A DNA stretch of 64,000 bases from positions 3,295 through 67,294 of the forward strand of contig CALVQQ010000001.1 of the NCBI GenBank assembly GCA_944358255.1, given 5' to 3'. Of this stretch, positions 52,149 through 59,087 are shown piece by piece. This DNA comes from an uncultured Bacilli bacterium (GTDB lineage Bacteria; Bacillota_I; Bacilli_A; RF39; UBA660). The position numbers and the translations under genes were made by a program. Position 1 is the first letter of the stretch. Each line of letters starts with the position of its first letter. Under the pieces are notes generated by a model that was not told the origin of the DNA, made no database searches, and saw only the letters and a program-made list of their open reading frames with translations.

Positions 52149-52259
52149 TTACATTTTAAATCCAGATTTACTTTTGAATTTTCTTTTCCCACCTTGGGGA
52201 GCAATTTCAAACTTATACTGAAATACCTTTCCTCTTTTTACTACATTTACTTTTCTCAT
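52149..52259 (-). pseudogene. second tyrosine-integrase N-terminal stub (36 aa), paralogous to the integrase at 48963
   Basis: MRKVNVVKRGKVFQYKFEIAPQGGKRKFKSKSGFKM* parallels MINIRKRGNVYQYCFEAGKVNGKRKQITKSGFKTK… and terminates prematurely. Lies about 230 nt downstream of the secA stop. Confidence 0.55.
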
Positions 52260-52477
52260 TACACAATTCCTTACTTTATGTAAACGGAGTTATCTTTAAC
52301 AAAAAAGTTAGCAAATGAATGCTAACTTTTTTGTTTCCAAAATTGTTTCCAAAAATTTTTCCCTTATTTTATAAGGCTTTTCAGAGGTTTTGGTAACATC
52401 TTTTTTAATTTTGGAAACAAAATGGAAACAAATCGACTATTTTTTATGATTTTTTGATTTTTAAAACCTTCGCAAAC

Positions 52478-52533
52478 CCTTATTTTATAAGCTATTTACC
52501 ACAGCAATTCTTATACTTTTTCCCTGAGCCACA
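52478..52533. repeat. secA 3' terminus copy (att site at the intact gene)
   Basis: Partner of 47387-47440; spans the secA stop codon at 52492-52494. Confidence 0.7.
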
Positions 52534-54984
52534 AGGACATGGTTCATTTCTGCCAATTTTTTTTGATACTCTTTTAGGAGCTTTTTTTGTTTCTTCTTTT
52601 GTATCATTGGTTTTTATATTTTTGTTTTCATGTCTCTCTAGGTTTTGACGTACTTCAGCTTTTAATAAAAAGGTAGTAATTTCTCTATTAATTTGAGCTA
52701 ACATGTTATCAAATAATTCAAATCCTTCTAAAGCATATGCTTGTAATGGATTAGTTTGAGCATAACCTCTTAATCCAATTCCCTCTTTTAAATGTTCCAT
52801 TGCGTCTAATTGATCCATCCAGTTTTTATCGAGTATTCTTAAAGTTATTGCTTTTTCAAAATCATTTTGTATTTCTACTGGAATATCTTTTAATTTTTCT
52901 TCATAATCTTTAACTACTATTTTGTATATATAGTCAATTATTTCATCAACTGTCTTACTTTCTAATTCCTTTTTATTTAATTTTTTGCTCTTTAATAAAT
53001 TAGCATTAAATCTCTCGATTATATTATCAATATCATTTATTGTTAATTTGTCCTCTGGCGGTATGTGACTCTTTACTTCTTGAGAAACGTACTCTTTAAA
53101 TGTTTCTAATATTCTGTCTCGTATGCTTTCTTGATCAAGAATCTCATTTCTTCTTTCATAAATTATTTCTCTTTGTCTACTTATAACATTGTCATAATCC
53201 AATAGGGCTTTTCTTCTATCATAATTGAATCCTTCAACTCTTTTCTGCGCACTTTCTATATTTTTGGATAACATTTTATGAGTAATTGGTTGGTCTTCTT
53301 TTATTCCAAATGTTGTCATTATTGCCTTCATTCTATCTGACCCAAACCTTGCCATTAAATCATCTTCCATTGATATATAAAATCTTGTTATACCAGGGTC
53401 TCCTTGTCTGCCACTTCTTCCTCTTAATTGGTTATCAATTCTTCTTGAATCATGTCTTTCAGAACCAAGTACCATTAAACCGCCTAATTCTTTTACACCT
53501 TCTCCAAGTTTTATGTCTGTTCCACGACCGGCCATATTAGTTGCAATCGTAACAGCTCCTTTTTGCCCAGCGTTTTTAATGATTTCTGCTTCTCTTTCAT
53601 GATTTTTAGCATTTAATAATTCGTGCTTTATTCCTCTCTTTTTTAATAGTGAACTTAATAATTCTGAACTTTCAATTGAAGCTGTACCCACCAAAATTGG
53701 TTGGCCTGTTTTATGCACGGTTTCAATAGTATTTGCTAATGCATTGTATTTACCTTTTATATTTATATATACTAAATCGTTCATGTCTTCTCTGATAACA
53801 GGCTTGTTTGTTGGAATTTCAATTACGTACATATTATATATATTTCTAAACTCTTCTTCTTCAGTCTTGGCTGTTCCTGTCATACCAGATAGTTTATTGT
53901 ACATTCTAAATAAATTTTGGAAAGTTATTGTTGCCAGTGTTTTTGTTTCACTATTTATTGTTACTCCCTCTTTTGCTTCTAAAGCTTGATGCAATCCATC
54001 TGAATATTGTCTTCCATGCATTAATCTGCCTGTAAATGCGTCTACTATTATAATTTTATCGTTGTCTACAACATAGTCGACATCTTTTTTAAATGCATAA
54101 TTTGCTGTTAATGCTTTATCTAAATTGTGTACTAACATTGCATTATTAATATCATATAGATTATCTACTTTTAAAAGTTTTTCTGATTTTTTAACTCCTT
54201 CTTCAGTTAATGTTACTTTCTTTGTCTTCTCATCTATTACATAATCATCTAATGTAAGACTTTTTGCAGCTTTATCTGCTAATATATATAAGTCCGCACT
54301 TTTACTTACGCCACCTGAGATGATTAGTGGAGTTCTCGCTTCGTCTATTAATATTGAATCGACCTCGTCAATAATTGCAAAATTCAAGCCCCTTTGGACT
54401 CTATTCTCACTTCTTACAACCATATTATCTCTAAGATAGTCAAATCCAAGTTCATTATTCGTAGTATATGTAATATCTTGATCATATGCTTGTTTCTTTT
54501 CTTGCGGCGTTAGTTCTTTTTTATTTATTCCTACGGTCACACCTAATAATTCATAAATTTTTCCCATCCACTCAGCATCACGGCAAGTTAAATATTCATT
54601 TACCGTAATAATGTGGACGCCTTTACCTTCTAGTGCGTTTAAATAAGCCGGCATTGTAGATGTTAATGTTTTTCCTTCACCAGTTTTCATTTCGGCTATA
54701 TTGCCAAAATGTATTGCTAGTCCTCCGATTATTTGAACTTTAAATGGCTTTTCTTTTAATACCCTCCATGATGCTTCTCTAACTAGTGCAAATGCTTCAA
54801 CTATTAAGTCATCTAAAGTTTCCCCATTAGATAGTCTCTTTTTAAATTCTTCTGTCTTTTCTCTAAAATCTGTGTCTTTTAATTTAGACATTTCTTCTTC
54901 TTTTTCTATTATTTCATCTGCTAATTTTTCAAATTTTTTTAGTTCTCTATTTTCATGATTAAATATGTTACTTAAAAATCCCAT
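52492..54984 (-). CDS. secA: preprotein translocase ATPase SecA
   Basis: 830 aa with DEAD-like motor domains and C-terminal zinc finger CPCGSGKKYKNCCGK. Confidence 0.93.
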   Translation of the reverse strand: MGFLSNIFNHENRELKKFEKLADEIIEKEEEMSKLKDTDFREKTEEFKKRLSNGETLDDLIVEAFALVREASWRVLKEKPFKVQIIGGLAIHFGNIAEMKTGEGKTLTSTMPAYLNALEGKGVHIITVNEYLTCRDAEWMGKIYELLGVTVGINKKELTPQEKKQAYDQDITYTTNNELGFDYLRDNMVVRSENRVQRGLNFAIIDEVDSILIDEARTPLIISGGVSKSADLYILADKAAKSLTLDDYVIDEKTKKVTLTEEGVKKSEKLLKVDNLYDINNAMLVHNLDKALTANYAFKKDVDYVVDNDKIIIVDAFTGRLMHGRQYSDGLHQALEAKEGVTINSETKTLATITFQNLFRMYNKLSGMTGTAKTEEEEFRNIYNMYVIEIPTNKPVIREDMNDLVYINIKGKYNALANTIETVHKTGQPILVGTASIESSELLSSLLKKRGIKHELLNAKNHEREAEIIKNAGQKGAVTIATNMAGRGTDIKLGEGVKELGGLMVLGSERHDSRRIDNQLRGRSGRQGDPGITRFYISMEDDLMARFGSDRMKAIMTTFGIKEDQPITHKMLSKNIESAQKRVEGFNYDRRKALLDYDNVISRQREIIYERRNEILDQESIRDRILETFKEYVSQEVKSHIPPEDKLTINDIDNIIERFNANLLKSKKLNKKELESKTVDEIIDYIYKIVVKDYEEKLKDIPVEIQNDFEKAITLRILDKNWMDQLDAMEHLKEGIGLRGYAQTNPLQAYALEGFELFDNMLAQINREITTFLLKAEVRQNLERHENKNIKTNDTKEETKKAPKRVSKKIGRNEPCPCGSGKKYKNCCGK

Positions 54985-55025
54985 GTCATCACATCCTTAA
55001 TGTTTATTTTAACATATTACTTGAT

Positions 55026-55050
55026 TTAAAAAAAGCACTTTTCAGTGCTA
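55026..55050 (-). terminator. rho-independent terminator downstream of hpf
   Basis: AGCACT-gaaa-AGTGCT stem (on the minus strand) overlapping the stop, followed by a U-run. Confidence 0.55.
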
Positions 55051-55566
55051 GTTCGTTTCAATTAGACCGTAGTTTCCGTCATGCCTTTTATAAATGACAC
55101 ATATTGTATCTGTTTCTATATTCTTAAATACAAAGAATGTATGCCCTAATAATTCCATTTGCATGATAGCTTCTTCTTCATCCATTGGTTTCAAATATAT
55201 TTTTTTTCTTTTTACAATTTCTTCTTCTATTGTTTCGTCTATATCAAAATTGTCTTTTATATTTTCTTGTCTAGATTTATCTATTAATTTTGTCTTATAT
55301 TTTCTAAATTGCCTTTCTAATTTATCTATTATTAAGTCAATTGCAGCATATAAATCACTATGTGCTTCTTCTGCTCTTAAAAAATAACCTTTTGTCTGTA
55401 TAGTAACTTCTACTCTTTGCTCTACACCATTAACTTTTATCAAAATTTTTGCTTCAACGTTTTCTGGATTATCTAAGTATTTATCCATCTTTGATAGTTT
55501 TTCTTCTATGTAGTCTTTTATTGAATCTGTTACTTGAATTTTTTCTCCACGAATTAAATATCTCAT
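55048..55566 (-). CDS. hpf: ribosome hibernation promoting factor (long form)
   Basis: 172 aa MRYLIRGEKIQVTDSIKDYIEEKLSKMDKYL… Conserved position upstream of secA. Confidence 0.85.
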   Translation of the reverse strand: MRYLIRGEKIQVTDSIKDYIEEKLSKMDKYLDNPENVEAKILIKVNGVEQRVEVTIQTKGYFLRAEEAHSDLYAAIDLIIDKLERQFRKYKTKLIDKSRQENIKDNFDIDETIEEEIVKRKKIYLKPMDEEEAIMQMELLGHTFFVFKNIETDTICVIYKRHDGNYGLIETN

Positions 55567-55601
55567 AATAATACCTCCTAATATAATATTATCACATCAG
55601 A

Positions 55602-55628
55602 TAAAAAAAAACTACTATACAGTAGTTA
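55602..55628 (-). terminator. rho-independent terminator downstream of the cold-shock gene
   Basis: AACTACT / AGTAGTT stem followed on the minus strand by a U-run. Confidence 0.5.
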
Positions 55629-55836
55629 ATTTGACTTCTTTTACATTAATTGCTTGTCTACCTTTTGCTGTTTTGATTAATGTAAATTCAACTATGTCGC
55701 CTTCTTTTAATGACTTATAGCCCTCACACTCAATAGCAGAATAATGCACGAATACATCTTCATTTAATGCTTCTCCTGTTTCAATAAATCCATATCCCTT
55801 TTCATTATTGAACCATTTAACTCTGCCCTTGTTCAT
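55615..55836 (-). CDS. cold-shock protein (CspA family)
   Basis: [35 protein letters not shown]… with RNP1/RNP2 motifs. ATG with SD AAGAGGTGG; the track ORF begins at an upstream GTG. Confidence 0.88.
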
Positions 55837-55967
55837 ACTATCCACCTCTTTTCATATAAGCCTATCTTAAACTACCACTAAAAACATATCAAGATTTTCC
55901 GATCGTCAAAATCCGACATTTATACCGCAATTTTATTTTAATATATTTGTATTATATTATTTTTAAT

Positions 55968-55997
55968 TTAGTTTCTTTTTGTAATTTTTTAGTCTGT
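55968..55997 (+). promoter_or_regulatory. candidate LytTR (AgrA-type) direct-repeat site upstream of agrB
   Basis: TTAGTTTCT (55968-55976) and TTAGTCTGT (55989-55997) are 9 bp direct repeats at 21 bp periodicity (9 bp plus 12 bp spacer), about 125 nt upstream of agrB. Confidence 0.3.
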
Positions 55998-56118
55998 ATT
56001 TCATTTTTATTTTTTTTTATAAGATTTTTGTCGTTTTATACACTTTTTTTATTTTGTTATGCTTTTTTCACTCTCCAATTTAAAAATCTTGTTATATTAT
56101 TTTACGTAAGGAGGAATT

Positions 56119-56721
56119 GTGAAAGATGTATTTGTAAATTCTTTAATGTATAGTGTTAATAAATATAAAGATTTTGATGATGTAAAACTGAAAGAAATTA
56201 AATATGGGATTGAATCTTTGTATTTGGCCGTATCAAAGACTATTGTGATTTTTTCTTTGGCTTTGTTACTGGGTTTATTTAAAAGCTTGTTGCATTTAAT
56301 GATAGCTTATACACTTTTACGATTAAATGGTTTTGGATTGCATGCAAAAAAAAGTTGGCAATGTTGGGCCGGATCTATTTTTCTGTTTTTACCAATAGCC
56401 TATTTATGTTCGACTATTTATATTGAAAAGGAAATACAATTGATTTTGTCTAGTTTTTGTTTAGTTCTAATAGGAAAGTACGCGCCAGCTGATACAGAAA
56501 AAAGACCACTGATTAATATGTCAAAGCGTAGATTGCACAAAATTTTATGTGTTATTACAACTTTGATGTATATCATAGTTATAGCCAGCTTAAAAAATAA
56601 TTATTATTGTAACATCTTGTTCTCGGCAATAGTTATTCAGACAATGTTAGTTTTACCAATTAGTTATAAAATATTTAAGTTAAGATATAACAATTATAAA
56701 TCATATATTAAACAAAATTAG
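56119..56721 (+). CDS. agrB: AgrB-family membrane peptidase (autoinducing-peptide maturation)
   Basis: 200 aa. …LRLNGFGLHAKKSWQCWAGSIFLFLPIAYL… and …GKYAPADTEKRPLINMSKRRLHKI… align with AgrB catalytic His/Cys regions and the YAPA…K(K/R)P motif. GTG start with SD GGAGGA. Confidence 0.7.
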   Translation: MKDVFVNSLMYSVNKYKDFDDVKLKEIKYGIESLYLAVSKTIVIFSLALLLGLFKSLLHLMIAYTLLRLNGFGLHAKKSWQCWAGSIFLFLPIAYLCSTIYIEKEIQLILSSFCLVLIGKYAPADTEKRPLINMSKRRLHKILCVITTLMYIIVIASLKNNYYCNILFSAIVIQTMLVLPISYKIFKLRYNNYKSYIKQN

Positions 56722-56760
56722 TAATTAACTTAAATATTTTTATAAAAGAAAAGGAGGTAT

Positions 56761-56883
56761 ATGATGAGAGTTTTTGCAAGCATAGTTTCAGCTTTAGGTA
56801 CTTTTTTTGCTCTAACAACTAGTGGTGCTTCTTGGCTTGGTTGGTTTGATGAAGCTGAAATGCCTGAAAGTTTAATTAAATAA
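56761..56883 (+). CDS. agrD: AgrD-like autoinducing peptide precursor (40 aa, no cysteine)
   Basis: Not in the ORF track (<60 aa). SD AAAGGAGGT then MMRVFASIVSALGTFFALTTSGASWLGWFDEAEMPESLIK: amphipathic N-terminal helix, hydrophobic core SWLGWF and acidic recognition tail DEAEMPESL. Lies 40 nt after agrB. Confidence 0.55.
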   Translation: MMRVFASIVSALGTFFALTTSGASWLGWFDEAEMPESLIK

Positions 56884-56904
56884 TATTTAACGTATTATTA
56901 GTTG

Positions 56905-56935
56905 AAATGGCCATAAAAATGGCCATTTTTATTGT
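56905..56935 (+). terminator. rho-independent terminator after agrBD
   Basis: AAATGGCCAT-aaaa-ATGGCCATTT 10 bp stem followed by a T-run. Confidence 0.7.
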
Positions 56936-56979
56936 ACTTGATTAGTGGATTTGATAAATAATTAAAAAAATAAGATGTT

Positions 56980-58293
56980 TTACGTATGGTTATTTCTTAT
57001 TTTTAATTTTGTTACAAAATTTTTACTTTTGTTTATATATTGTTCATACTCAATTGTTGTAGAGGATCTTTTTAATTTCTGTGCTATAAATAACCCTATC
57101 CCTCTATTTTTCCCTTTTGTAGAATAATATTTTTCGTTAATGAGATTAATATTTACCTTATTACTAAAACTATTTTCTATATAAAAAACAATAAAATTAT
57201 TTTCCATGTAAATATCTAATATGATCATCTTTTGATCGCTTTTATTTGCAGCTTCTATTGCATTATCTAAGAAAATATTTAACAATCTACATAATTTAGA
57301 ATAATCTTTGGTGTTTCTTTCGTTAAGTAGATTATTTAAATTTTTTATACAATTAAATGTAAAATTTATATTATTTTTTTCGATAATGTTTATTTTGTAA
57401 TATAATATTCCTTTTATACCTGCAGGTAAATAGCCTATATTCCTGTATTCTGTTTTATAAGATGTAGAATAGTTATTTATCAGTTCTTTTAAAAGTTTCT
57501 TAAATTCTATACTATTTTTGTCCTCATAACTATTTAATAGGACTAGATTATTTAGCATTTCGTGTTTGTTAATTCTATATTTATCAATCAAGAATTCATA
57601 TTTCTTCATGTATTCTAAAATTATTTTTTGATTTTCTTCTACGTCTATAATTTTGTTTTTATATTTTATTAATATAGTCATGCAACTTAAAATGATAATA
57701 CTAGAGACTAAATTGTTATAGTAATTTTTGATATTTATGTTAATTGTATAGATTATTATTATATATATTATAAACAAATAAAAAATGATTAGTAAGATTC
57801 TAACTATTACAGCTTGCTTATCTATAATTAAATATAAAATTTTATTTAAAAACTTTTTTGTGCTTTTTATGGATAATGTCAATATTAAATTTAAAACGAC
57901 TAATATTGAAAACAAGTTTCTTATGACTAATGAGTTTATGCTAGTTATAATGTAACTATTAGAATTAACAATCAAAAATATAAATGAATATACCAATTCA
58001 AATAATATTTCTACACTATATAGTAATAAAACTGTTATAAATATATTTTTAAAATTATCTCTATAAATTGTTGTTATAAAAACGACATTTAAAAATAAAT
58101 TTATAAATATTTTATACTCATTAAATTCAGATAAGCCAATATATATTTGTATTAATGAAAATAGTAATATTAATAATATATGATTTAATTCAATTTTTTC
58201 TTTTTGTCTTTTTGTTAATATTTTATAACCATAATATATTGCAAATACGCCAAAGCAAACACATAAATATGCAAATATATAGTTAATATCCAT
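56980..58293 (-). CDS. agrC: AgrC-like (HPK10) sensor histidine kinase
   Basis: Six or more N-terminal TM helices. H-box …RINKHEML…, N-box …LLNIFLDNAIEA…, G-box …STKGKNRGIGL…. Confidence 0.75.
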   Translation of the reverse strand: MDINYIFAYLCVCFGVFAIYYGYKILTKRQKEKIELNHILLILLFSLIQIYIGLSEFNEYKIFINLFLNVVFITTIYRDNFKNIFITVLLLYSVEILFELVYSFIFLIVNSNSYIITSINSLVIRNLFSILVVLNLILTLSIKSTKKFLNKILYLIIDKQAVIVRILLIIFYLFIIYIIIIYTININIKNYYNNLVSSIIILSCMTILIKYKNKIIDVEENQKIILEYMKKYEFLIDKYRINKHEMLNNLVLLNSYEDKNSIEFKKLLKELINNYSTSYKTEYRNIGYLPAGIKGILYYKINIIEKNNINFTFNCIKNLNNLLNERNTKDYSKLCRLLNIFLDNAIEAANKSDQKMIILDIYMENNFIVFYIENSFSNKVNINLINEKYYSTKGKNRGIGLFIAQKLKRSSTTIEYEQYINKSKNFVTKLKIRNNHT

Positions 58294-58999
58294 TTGCCAT
58301 TAGTTCCTTTTTGTGAGTTTTAGATAAAAAATATATCTCTTCACCTGTTTCAAATATTATCTTATTATCTTTCCATACAAAAGCTTCGACTTTATCTAAA
58401 TTAACCAAGCAAGCTTTATGCGTAAATTTAAATCTACCGTCTAATTTTTGTGCTAAATCGGATATGTTCATTATAACTTTATATTTTTTGTCATTTATAG
58501 TATTTATAATGCATTTTCTCTCAACAGTATCTCTATAAATATATAGTATTTTGTTTATATCAATGTTATAATCAATGCCTTTATATTTAAACTTTAATGT
58601 TTTTCTACTAGCAATTTGTTTTAAACATATATCAAATAGTTCAAATAAATTTTTCTCTGCTTCATACTGTTTGTTAACAAAGTCTAATATTTGTAATCTT
58701 TGCTTAAAAGTATCATATGCCATGCCACCATTTACAGTAAATATTATAATTGGGCTTGTCCAATCTGTTTCACGAACTTTTCTTGACAGATCTATTGCAT
58801 TTGTATTTGGTAGTTCAAAATCAAATATATAAATATTGTTATTTTCTGATGTTGAAATTAAAATATCTAGCTCTTGCGTTCTTTTTTCAAATTCAATTAT
58901 GTCAAACTCCATTTTGTTTTTCATCATATAATTTAATATTATATTTTTTATTTTCTTTCGATGAATTTTATTATCTTCGACAACCACAAAATTTATCAT
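58283..58999 (-). CDS. agrA: AgrA-like LytTR-family response regulator
   Basis: N-terminal receiver (VVVEDN…) and C-terminal LytTR domain (…KYKVIMNISDLAQKLDGRFKFTHKACLVNLDKVE…). Confidence 0.8.
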   Translation of the reverse strand: MINFVVVEDNKIHRKKIKNIILNYMMKNKMEFDIIEFEKRTQELDILISTSENNNIYIFDFELPNTNAIDLSRKVRETDWTSPIIIFTVNGGMAYDTFKQRLQILDFVNKQYEAEKNLFELFDICLKQIASRKTLKFKYKGIDYNIDINKILYIYRDTVERKCIINTINDKKYKVIMNISDLAQKLDGRFKFTHKACLVNLDKVEAFVWKDNKIIFETGEEIYFLSKTHKKELMANGY

Positions 59000-59087
59000 T
59001 TATATCCCCTTTACCTTAATTTTACGGTATATAATATAACATATTTTTATTTAAAAATAAAGGATTTATGATACCATTTAAACATAA

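Follow-up and report, generated by a model that had tools for sequence, protein, structure and literature searches.

A predicted six-residue serine lactone autoinducing peptide encoded by an agr-type locus of an uncultured gut Firmicute

Organization of the agr-type locus

We analyzed a 64,000-nucleotide stretch of DNA, hereafter called the window, whose host is an uncultured gut Firmicute with sporulation genes. The ORF list and domain searches of the window revealed agrB and agrD on the plus strand, convergent with an operon on the minus strand that encodes a response regulator (RR) and a histidine kinase (HK). The features of the locus are the following.

55969..55995, plus strand: imperfect direct repeat upstream of agrB, candidate binding site of the LytTR regulator
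56119..56721, plus strand: agrB, 200 aa, GTG start with GGAGG at 56110-56114; membrane cysteine peptidase/cyclase (PF04647)
56753..56757, plus strand: GGAGG, Shine-Dalgarno sequence of agrD as read from the sequence
56764..56883, plus strand: agrD, 39 aa from the second ATG (based on TIGR04223, homologue lengths, alignment, and pN/pS)
56764-56829, plus strand: agrD leader in the 39-aa form
56830-56847, plus strand: agrD core, S-W-L-G-W-F
56830..56832, plus strand: TCT, encoding the Ser predicted to close the ring (Ser23 in the 39-aa form, Ser24 in the 40-aa form)
56848-56880, plus strand: agrD acidic follower, DEAEMPESLIK, with the stop codon at 56881-56883
56904..56929, plus strand: intrinsic terminator of the agrBD transcript between the convergent operons, an 11-pair stem followed by a T run
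56980..58293, minus strand: AgrC-like sensor histidine kinase, 437 aa (PF14501), with a polytopic N-terminal sensor, an H-box, and a GHKL ATPase domain
58283..58999, minus strand: AgrA-like response regulator, 238 aa, with receiver and LytTR domains; first gene of the RR-HK operon

By its gene content, the locus is a complete agr-type quorum-sensing system in which agrB and agrD face an agrA-like and agrC-like pair. The window has 28% GC and is transcribed nearly entirely from the minus strand, agrBD being among its few plus-strand units, and spoIIID, spoIID, and an M23 peptidase gene directly adjoin the agr locus. The gap between agrB and agrD on their common strand is 42 nt, and both in the window and in every close relative agrB begins with GTG preceded by AGGAGG. 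The terminator hairpin, in which 4 of the 11 pairs are GC pairs, starts 21 nt past the agrD stop; our terminator search found two such sites against 0.3 expected in shuffles. Scanning the whole window at Rfam gathering scores detected no family, with no RNAIII-like or other known RNA nearby.

AgrB matched PF04647 with an E value of 1.5e-29 over model positions 8-181 of 185 and contains at least four strongly hydrophobic segments. Its motif GLHAKKSWQCW presents a His and a Cys 7 residues apart, like H77 and C84 of Staphylococcus aureus AgrB, and we placed the catalytic dyad by this motif spacing together with the literature (PMC10482373). Both residues are kept at 28 of 28 loci and the full motif at 27 of 28 (HATKSWIC at L018), a count to be read with the fact that AKKSWQCW was itself one of the patterns used to find the loci. 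A PDB sequence search with AgrB returned no solved relative, only chance Kelch matches at an E value of about 0.8.

The kinase matched PF14501 (HATPase_c_5; E value of 1.8e-12), has an H-box, KHEMLN, at residue 244, and contains five to six hydrophobic segments within residues 1-181. Its full-length match to the NCBIfam AgrC model NF046015 was weak, at 16.5 versus an equivalog cutoff of 500. The regulator contains PF00072 and PF04397 domains, and its best NCBIfam model was quorum_RR_AgrA (E value of 3.8e-11; 43 versus an equivalog cutoff of 400). Because neither protein reaches the respective equivalog cutoff, we describe the pair as AgrC- and AgrA-like rather than as staphylococcal equivalogs.

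The AgrD precursor and its predicted ring-closing residue

The original prediction placed a cysteine-free AgrD precursor of 40 aa at 56761..56883, and this plus-strand frame indeed translates to MMRVFASIVSALGTFFALTTSGASWLGWFDEAEMPESLIK, 40 aa in length and without Cys. The reading frame stands, but the start at 56761 appears to be misplaced, with a second ATG at 56764 (39 aa, MRVF...) being the likelier one. The GGAGG lies 6 nt from the ATG at 56764 but only 3 nt from that at 56761. The start of each of 16 close homologues, and of the AgrD ORFs at 25 related loci, coincides with the second ATG; these products begin with MKLF or MRLF and are mostly 39 aa long, and gene callers reported a 39-aa AgrD product on four other contigs with an identical AgrB. 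These homologue starts and lengths, gene calls, and GGAGG spacing together indicate that the true start of agrD is probably the second ATG. One relative (L005, 833-1030, protein P0013) exposes an annotation trap for this family: its AgrD frame stays open on the upstream side and runs back into the end of agrB, so that the precursor of 39 aa is reported as a 65-aa protein by ORF finders and in public gene calls alike.

The assignment as AgrD held, with a match of 21.6 bits to NCBIfam TIGR04223 (quorum_AgrD; cutoff of 19; E value of 1.8e-4) covering residues 5-40, adjacency to agrB, and the register of the tail described below. A Pfam scan of the 40-aa peptide returned no family at an E value of ≤1, including the staphylococcal AgrD model PF05931, and a precomputed PF05931 match is present on some close relatives of the peptide. 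Public records of these AgrD peptides are mostly unnamed, with a few labeled "cyclic lactone autoinducer peptide."

Whether this frame is translated at all had been raised as a point on which the prediction could fail. Across eight orthologues, pN/pS over agrD is 0.28 (pS 0.50, pN 0.14), with values of 0.18 in the leader and 0.39 in both the core and the tail, and AAGGAGGT is kept 5-9 nt upstream of the agrD start in orthologous loci. Because synonymous differences far exceed nonsynonymous ones and AAGGAGGT is kept upstream, we conclude that agrD is translated and under purifying selection. The leader, MRVFASIVSALGTFFALTTSGA, combines hydrophobicity with a basic N terminus, is conserved (pN/pS of 0.18), and may serve as an amphipathic, membrane-targeting segment.

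An AgrD-like ORF lies downstream of agrB in 25 of the 25 related loci with sequence there, near-identical AgrD peptides occur in many independent assemblies, and the identical cassette occurs on 18 contigs. Querying GTDB species representatives with AgrB yielded 26 loci; almost all of these come from gut metagenome-assembled genomes (MAGs) of humans, rabbits, and ruminants that are labeled uncultured Bacilli or Clostridia. The prediction could also have failed on a rival small ORF with a Cys-containing core between agrB and the terminator, and we found none. The only other ORF in that interval is an antisense TTG ORF (56708..56818, 36 aa), which is unsupported.

We aligned 27 locus-linked precursors, an alignment that is ungapped through core and follower. 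At the column of the predicted nucleophile, 7 of these AgrB-linked precursors have Ser and the other 20 have Cys, with no other residue occurring there, and the column sits six residues before an invariant [DE]-E. A profile search with the AgrD alignment yielded 1942 matches at an E value of ≤1, and of the best 120 of these, 101 carry Cys and 19 carry Ser in the same column. Synteny provides the most direct comparison. Locus L027 has the gene order of the window (SecA-HPF-CSD-agrB-agrD-HK-RR-M23-SpoIID, with SpoIIID also called in its twin L028), and its precursor ...SGACWISWFDEAEMPESLIK aligns to ...SGASWLGWFDEAEMPESLIK of the window. GACWISWF in L027 is matched by GASWLGWF in the window, with the codons TGC and TCT, respectively.

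The follower places the other end of the ring. Aligning the tail motif against AgrD, a check that the prediction had proposed, showed the acidic follower in exact register with that of S. aureus AgrD-I. Follower residues D30, E31, P35, and L38 (40-aa numbering) correspond to S. aureus D33, E34, P38, and L41 at a constant offset of 3. Among the 27 sequences, E31 is invariant, L38 is conserved in at least 90%, and P35 is shared by the window and most others, with A or S replacing it in DEPEAD-type loci. In S. aureus, E34 and L41 are needed for AgrB processing, and cleavage occurs at M32|D33 via the H77/C84 dyad (PMC10482373). Because the follower register matches that of S. aureus AgrD, we predict that AgrB cuts at F|D to leave a six-residue ring, S-W-L-G-W-F. 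The six-residue ring from the Ser of SWLGWF that was originally proposed is thus upheld by a column restricted to Ser and Cys, a Cys at this position in L027, and the S. aureus tail register. In many related precursors, a Cys lies in the follower just before the conserved Pro (EEPECPKSL and DEEECPESL; L006, L007, L009, L011, L014, L015, and L016), with that of L007 two residues earlier (EECDTPESL), and the clade of the window has Met or Thr before the follower Pro.

The choice of Ser24 (40-aa numbering) as nucleophile is supported, but the statement that it is the only candidate does not hold, as S7, S10, T14, T19, T20, S21, and S37 are also present. Ser24 is singled out among these hydroxyl residues by alignment with the Cys-bearing orthologues. 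Use of Ser21, giving a nine-residue [SGASWLGWF] ring like that of the Enterococcus faecalis peptide GBAP, or of Thr19 or Thr20, giving a larger one, would have a precedent in the GBAP ring of nine residues from Ser to the C-terminal Met and would fit the frequent S or T at the -3 position. T19, T20, and S21 also occur in Cys-type relatives, however, and the same S/T-x-[AG] precedes an obvious Cys nucleophile there. The -3 residue is moreover Ala in L015 (GANMC), fitting a small-residue protease site better than a nucleophile, so that we consider closure through another hydroxyl very unlikely. Small residues are conserved at both -1 and -3 (SGA|S, SGA|C, TNA|C, and SSA|C), a pattern that would fit a protease cut directly before the nucleophile.

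The original prediction had also allowed for a linear signal, in which AgrB would only trim the follower, and perhaps export the peptide, with no ring being formed since the thiol is missing. The precursor does lack Cys, and S. aureus AgrB cannot cyclize a Ser substrate (PMC10482373). Linear AIPs are, however, inactive in tested systems, and AgrB/FsrB homologues elsewhere make Ser lactones. The AgrB His/Cys dyad is intact in the window, and a position that is only Ser or Cys in the 27 linked precursors and in the best 120 of the 1942 profile matches has the pattern of a required nucleophile, with Ser as strictly conserved as Cys is elsewhere. This alternative is disfavored, and we regard it as very improbable relative to closure of a ring by Ser24.

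Divergence of the agrB-agrD-sensor cassette

Protein identities between the window and its close relatives differ strongly along the locus. SecA, HPF, and CSD are 88-97% identical (SecA 92-97% where the sensor was compared) and the response regulator 81-88%, versus 57-63% for AgrB, 45-61% for the catalytic half of the kinase, and 30-53% for its sensor domain. agrB, agrD, and the sensor constitute a hypervariable cassette between conserved housekeeping genes. In staphylococci, a hypervariable agrB-agrD-agrC pattern defines specificity groups.

Metagenome contig L033 was compared with positions 52461-59000 of the window. The two agree completely over a segment that opens at the 5' end of secA, spans HPF, CSD, and agrBD, and takes in the kinase and regulator genes (100% identity), but they are only 80-96% identical over the rest of secA, with a sharp breakpoint at about 54,860-55,060. 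Either the agr segment was transferred by recombination from one diverged lineage to another, or the assembly is chimeric. Separately, 233 nt past the secA stop, the window contains a remnant of a tyrosine-integrase N terminus of the Arm-DNA-binding type (52149-52259, minus strand, extending down to about 52096), with a stop codon after 36 codons. At the corresponding position L027 carries an integrase gene of full length, 426 aa, to which the remnant is 56% identical in aa over 48 residues and 76% identical in nt over 99 nt; this suggests that the remnant is a decayed integrated element beside secA.

A neighbor-joining tree of AgrB built without bootstrap places the two Cys-type loci whose cores read GACW within the Ser-type loci. 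L007 (TGGSFLGWF), also of the Ser type, has a Cys-type locus as its sister, and its Ser codon is AGT, in contrast to the TCT or TCA of the main Ser clade. Because L007 groups with a Cys-type locus and uses the AGT codon, the Ser state has arisen at least twice. Ser-type rings comprise SWLGWF, SWIGWF, SWIGFF, SWMLWF, SWIWWF, SWILWF, SWWGWL, and SWWFWM, and Cys-type rings among relatives comprise CWISWF and CWISFI.

These data also bear on whether the Cys-to-Ser change could be an inactivating mutation in a decaying agr system, for which the failure of S. aureus AgrB1 and AgrB2 to process Ser-containing AgrD (PMC10482373) might be cited. Decay is, however, difficult to reconcile with the retention of Ser across at least 17 distinct clusters at 90%, whose ring sequences are diverse, and with an independent origin of Ser through a different codon family. 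It also conflicts with intact AgrB, HK, and RR ORFs, the pN/pS of agrD, and the cassette being identical on 18 contigs, leaving it an extremely improbable explanation beside that of a functional Ser-type signal.

Because S. aureus AgrB1 and AgrB2 reject Ser-containing AgrD, use of Ser would need a permissive AgrB, yet no column of our AgrB alignment separates Ser-type from Cys-type loci. Because Cys types nest within the Ser clade at one locus and no AgrB residue tracks the switch, we tentatively suggest, as a rather doubtful proposition, that AgrB in the lineage of the window accepts either nucleophile, so that the ring-closing atom itself would vary between signaling types. If this were true and the peptides were tail-free, Cys types would be expected to proceed from thiolactone to lactam, as other tail-free thiolactone AIPs do, and Ser lactones would rearrange only over many hours; the Ser/Cys switch would then determine which chemical form the signal takes and how long it lasts, in addition to its sequence.

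Proposed signal biogenesis and comparison with known peptides

The model that we favor, and consider likely as a whole, is an agr locus that makes a six-residue Ser lactone, [SWLGWF]. AgrB would bind the 39-aa AgrD precursor through its acidic follower, DEAEMPESLIK, and the AgrB active-site Cys would attack the F28-D29 bond (F29-D30 in the 40-aa ORF), releasing the follower and leaving an acyl-enzyme. The hydroxyl of Ser23 (Ser24 in the 40-aa ORF) would then resolve the acyl-enzyme to yield a six-residue cyclic depsipeptide lactone, and a second protease would remove the leader, most likely right after SGA, to give a tail-free ring. The predicted [M+H]+ values for SWLGWF are 777.372 for the cyclic and 795.382 for the linear peptide. 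The polytopic kinase would sense this peptide and phosphorylate the LytTR regulator, which would probably activate agrBD via a direct repeat 150 nt upstream.

That repeat, TAGTTT-N15-TAGTCT at 55969-55995, has a 21-nt periodicity and lies about 150 nt upstream of agrB in an otherwise poorly conserved AT-rich spacer. A 21-nt repeat spacing is typical of LytTR regulators such as AgrA. The pattern TWGTYT-N15-TWGTCT, which was derived post hoc, matches once in the 64-kb window against a chance expectation of 0.45, and it has a sole match in each of five species-level relatives, L001, L002, L004, L005, and L027, always 151 nt before agrB. A repeat search of the spacers upstream of agrB and the RR gene detected no direct repeats at the thresholds used, only AT-rich palindromes, and an unbiased search for 11-mer pairs spaced 20-22 nt apart was overwhelmed by AT-rich noise. 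We consider the repeat at 55969-55995 a candidate LytTR site for agrBD autoinduction and only a lead.

The species that is sensed could be a lactam rather than the lactone, since a tail-free lactone can hydrolyze or undergo an O-to-N acyl shift. The same precursor and ring would then give homodetic cyclo(SWLGWF), a lactam of the cAIP type, as the sensed form. The SGA|S site suggests the absence of an exocyclic tail, as such a rearrangement would presuppose, but the N-terminal cut site in the AgrD of the window is itself a prediction. Tail-free clostridial thiolactone AIPs do rearrange to lactams, and the fate of tail-free Ser lactones was explicitly posed as open (PMC8251862). In the case of a Listeria AIP analogue, a lactone without a tail, 48% had rearranged and 36% had hydrolyzed after 22 h at 37°C and pH 7 (PMC11297923). 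The O-to-N shift in that study took many hours, however, so that a lactone could be sensed within signaling time, and the product of Clostridium thermocellum was reported as a lactone (PMC5322536). We hold a lactam as the sensed form to be fairly unlikely and retain the lactone as the preferred one.

The original prediction had called either a Ser lactone or a linear peptide an unusual AIP chemistry. This was overstated, as Ser lactones and six-residue rings are each already documented. Ser lactone AIPs are described for Staphylococcus intermedius/pseudintermedius, E. faecalis (GBAP), Clostridioides difficile (agr2), and C. thermocellum, and tail-free six-residue rings for Clostridium acetobutylicum ([CVLVTL]) and R. 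cellulolyticum (CWFWSY). All clostridial AIPs that have been detected are tail-free (PMC8251862, PMC5322536).

The AIP of C. acetobutylicum resembles the predicted product of the window in its six-residue ring without an exocyclic tail and in the placement of agrBD in one operon and of the two-component genes in another, a known clostridial arrangement. It differs in being a Cys thiolactone that goes on to a lactam, whereas a Ser nucleophile is predicted in the window, where in addition the operons converge on a shared terminator region and the regulator gene comes first. AgrD of Acetivibrio (Clostridium/Hungateiclostridium) thermocellum (Clo1313_2818) shares the Ser nucleophile and the conserved follower Pro, and its leader was predicted to be cut at A24|S25, directly before the Ser, as we predict for the window (PMC5322536). 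Its tail-free S25-F29 lactone was confirmed by LC-MS/MS (PMC5322536), but this ring has five residues and its agrD is an orphan without adjacent agrB, agrC, or agrA, unlike the complete locus of the window.

In S. intermedius/pseudintermedius, Ser likewise replaces the ring-closing Cys of a working agr signal, a change thought to stem from a point mutation, but the operon is a canonical agrBDCA one, and the phylum-level lineage and the precursor family are different. The ring of the S. intermedius AIP comprises five residues and its exocyclic tail four, and that system includes RNAIII. The likeness to intermedius-type AIPs that was originally drawn holds for the lactone chemistry, but not for the ring size. 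In E. faecalis, FsrD gives rise to GBAP, QN[SPNIFGQWM], also a Ser lactone that an AgrB homologue produces and an AgrC/AgrA-type pair detects, but with a nine-residue ring and a two-residue tail; fsrD is read in frame with fsrB. The C. difficile agr2 peptide, NSA[SSWVA], shares a Ser at the ring-closing position, a Trp-containing hydrophobic ring, and a full agrBDCA-type locus, but it has a five-residue ring, as does S25-F29 of C. thermocellum, and a predicted NSA tail.

Full-text literature searches with six ring sequences of this AgrD family found no paper containing them, and we found no description of Ser combined with a six-residue ring in the literature searched. The AgrD of the window is a recombination of known features and not a new mechanism. 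These findings add a well-supported, Ser-type AgrD family with a six-residue ring from uncultured gut bacteria to the few lactone AIPs. Ser and Cys types interleave in this family with no change in AgrB that follows the switch, whereas S. aureus AgrB cannot process a Ser precursor. The natural Ser/Cys pairs at one syntenic locus, with diverged AgrB proteins and sensors, form a set for probing how AgrB accepts Ser, and the same pairs are suited to asking if Ser lactones that lack a tail are stable or undergo rearrangement, the question posed in PMC8251862.
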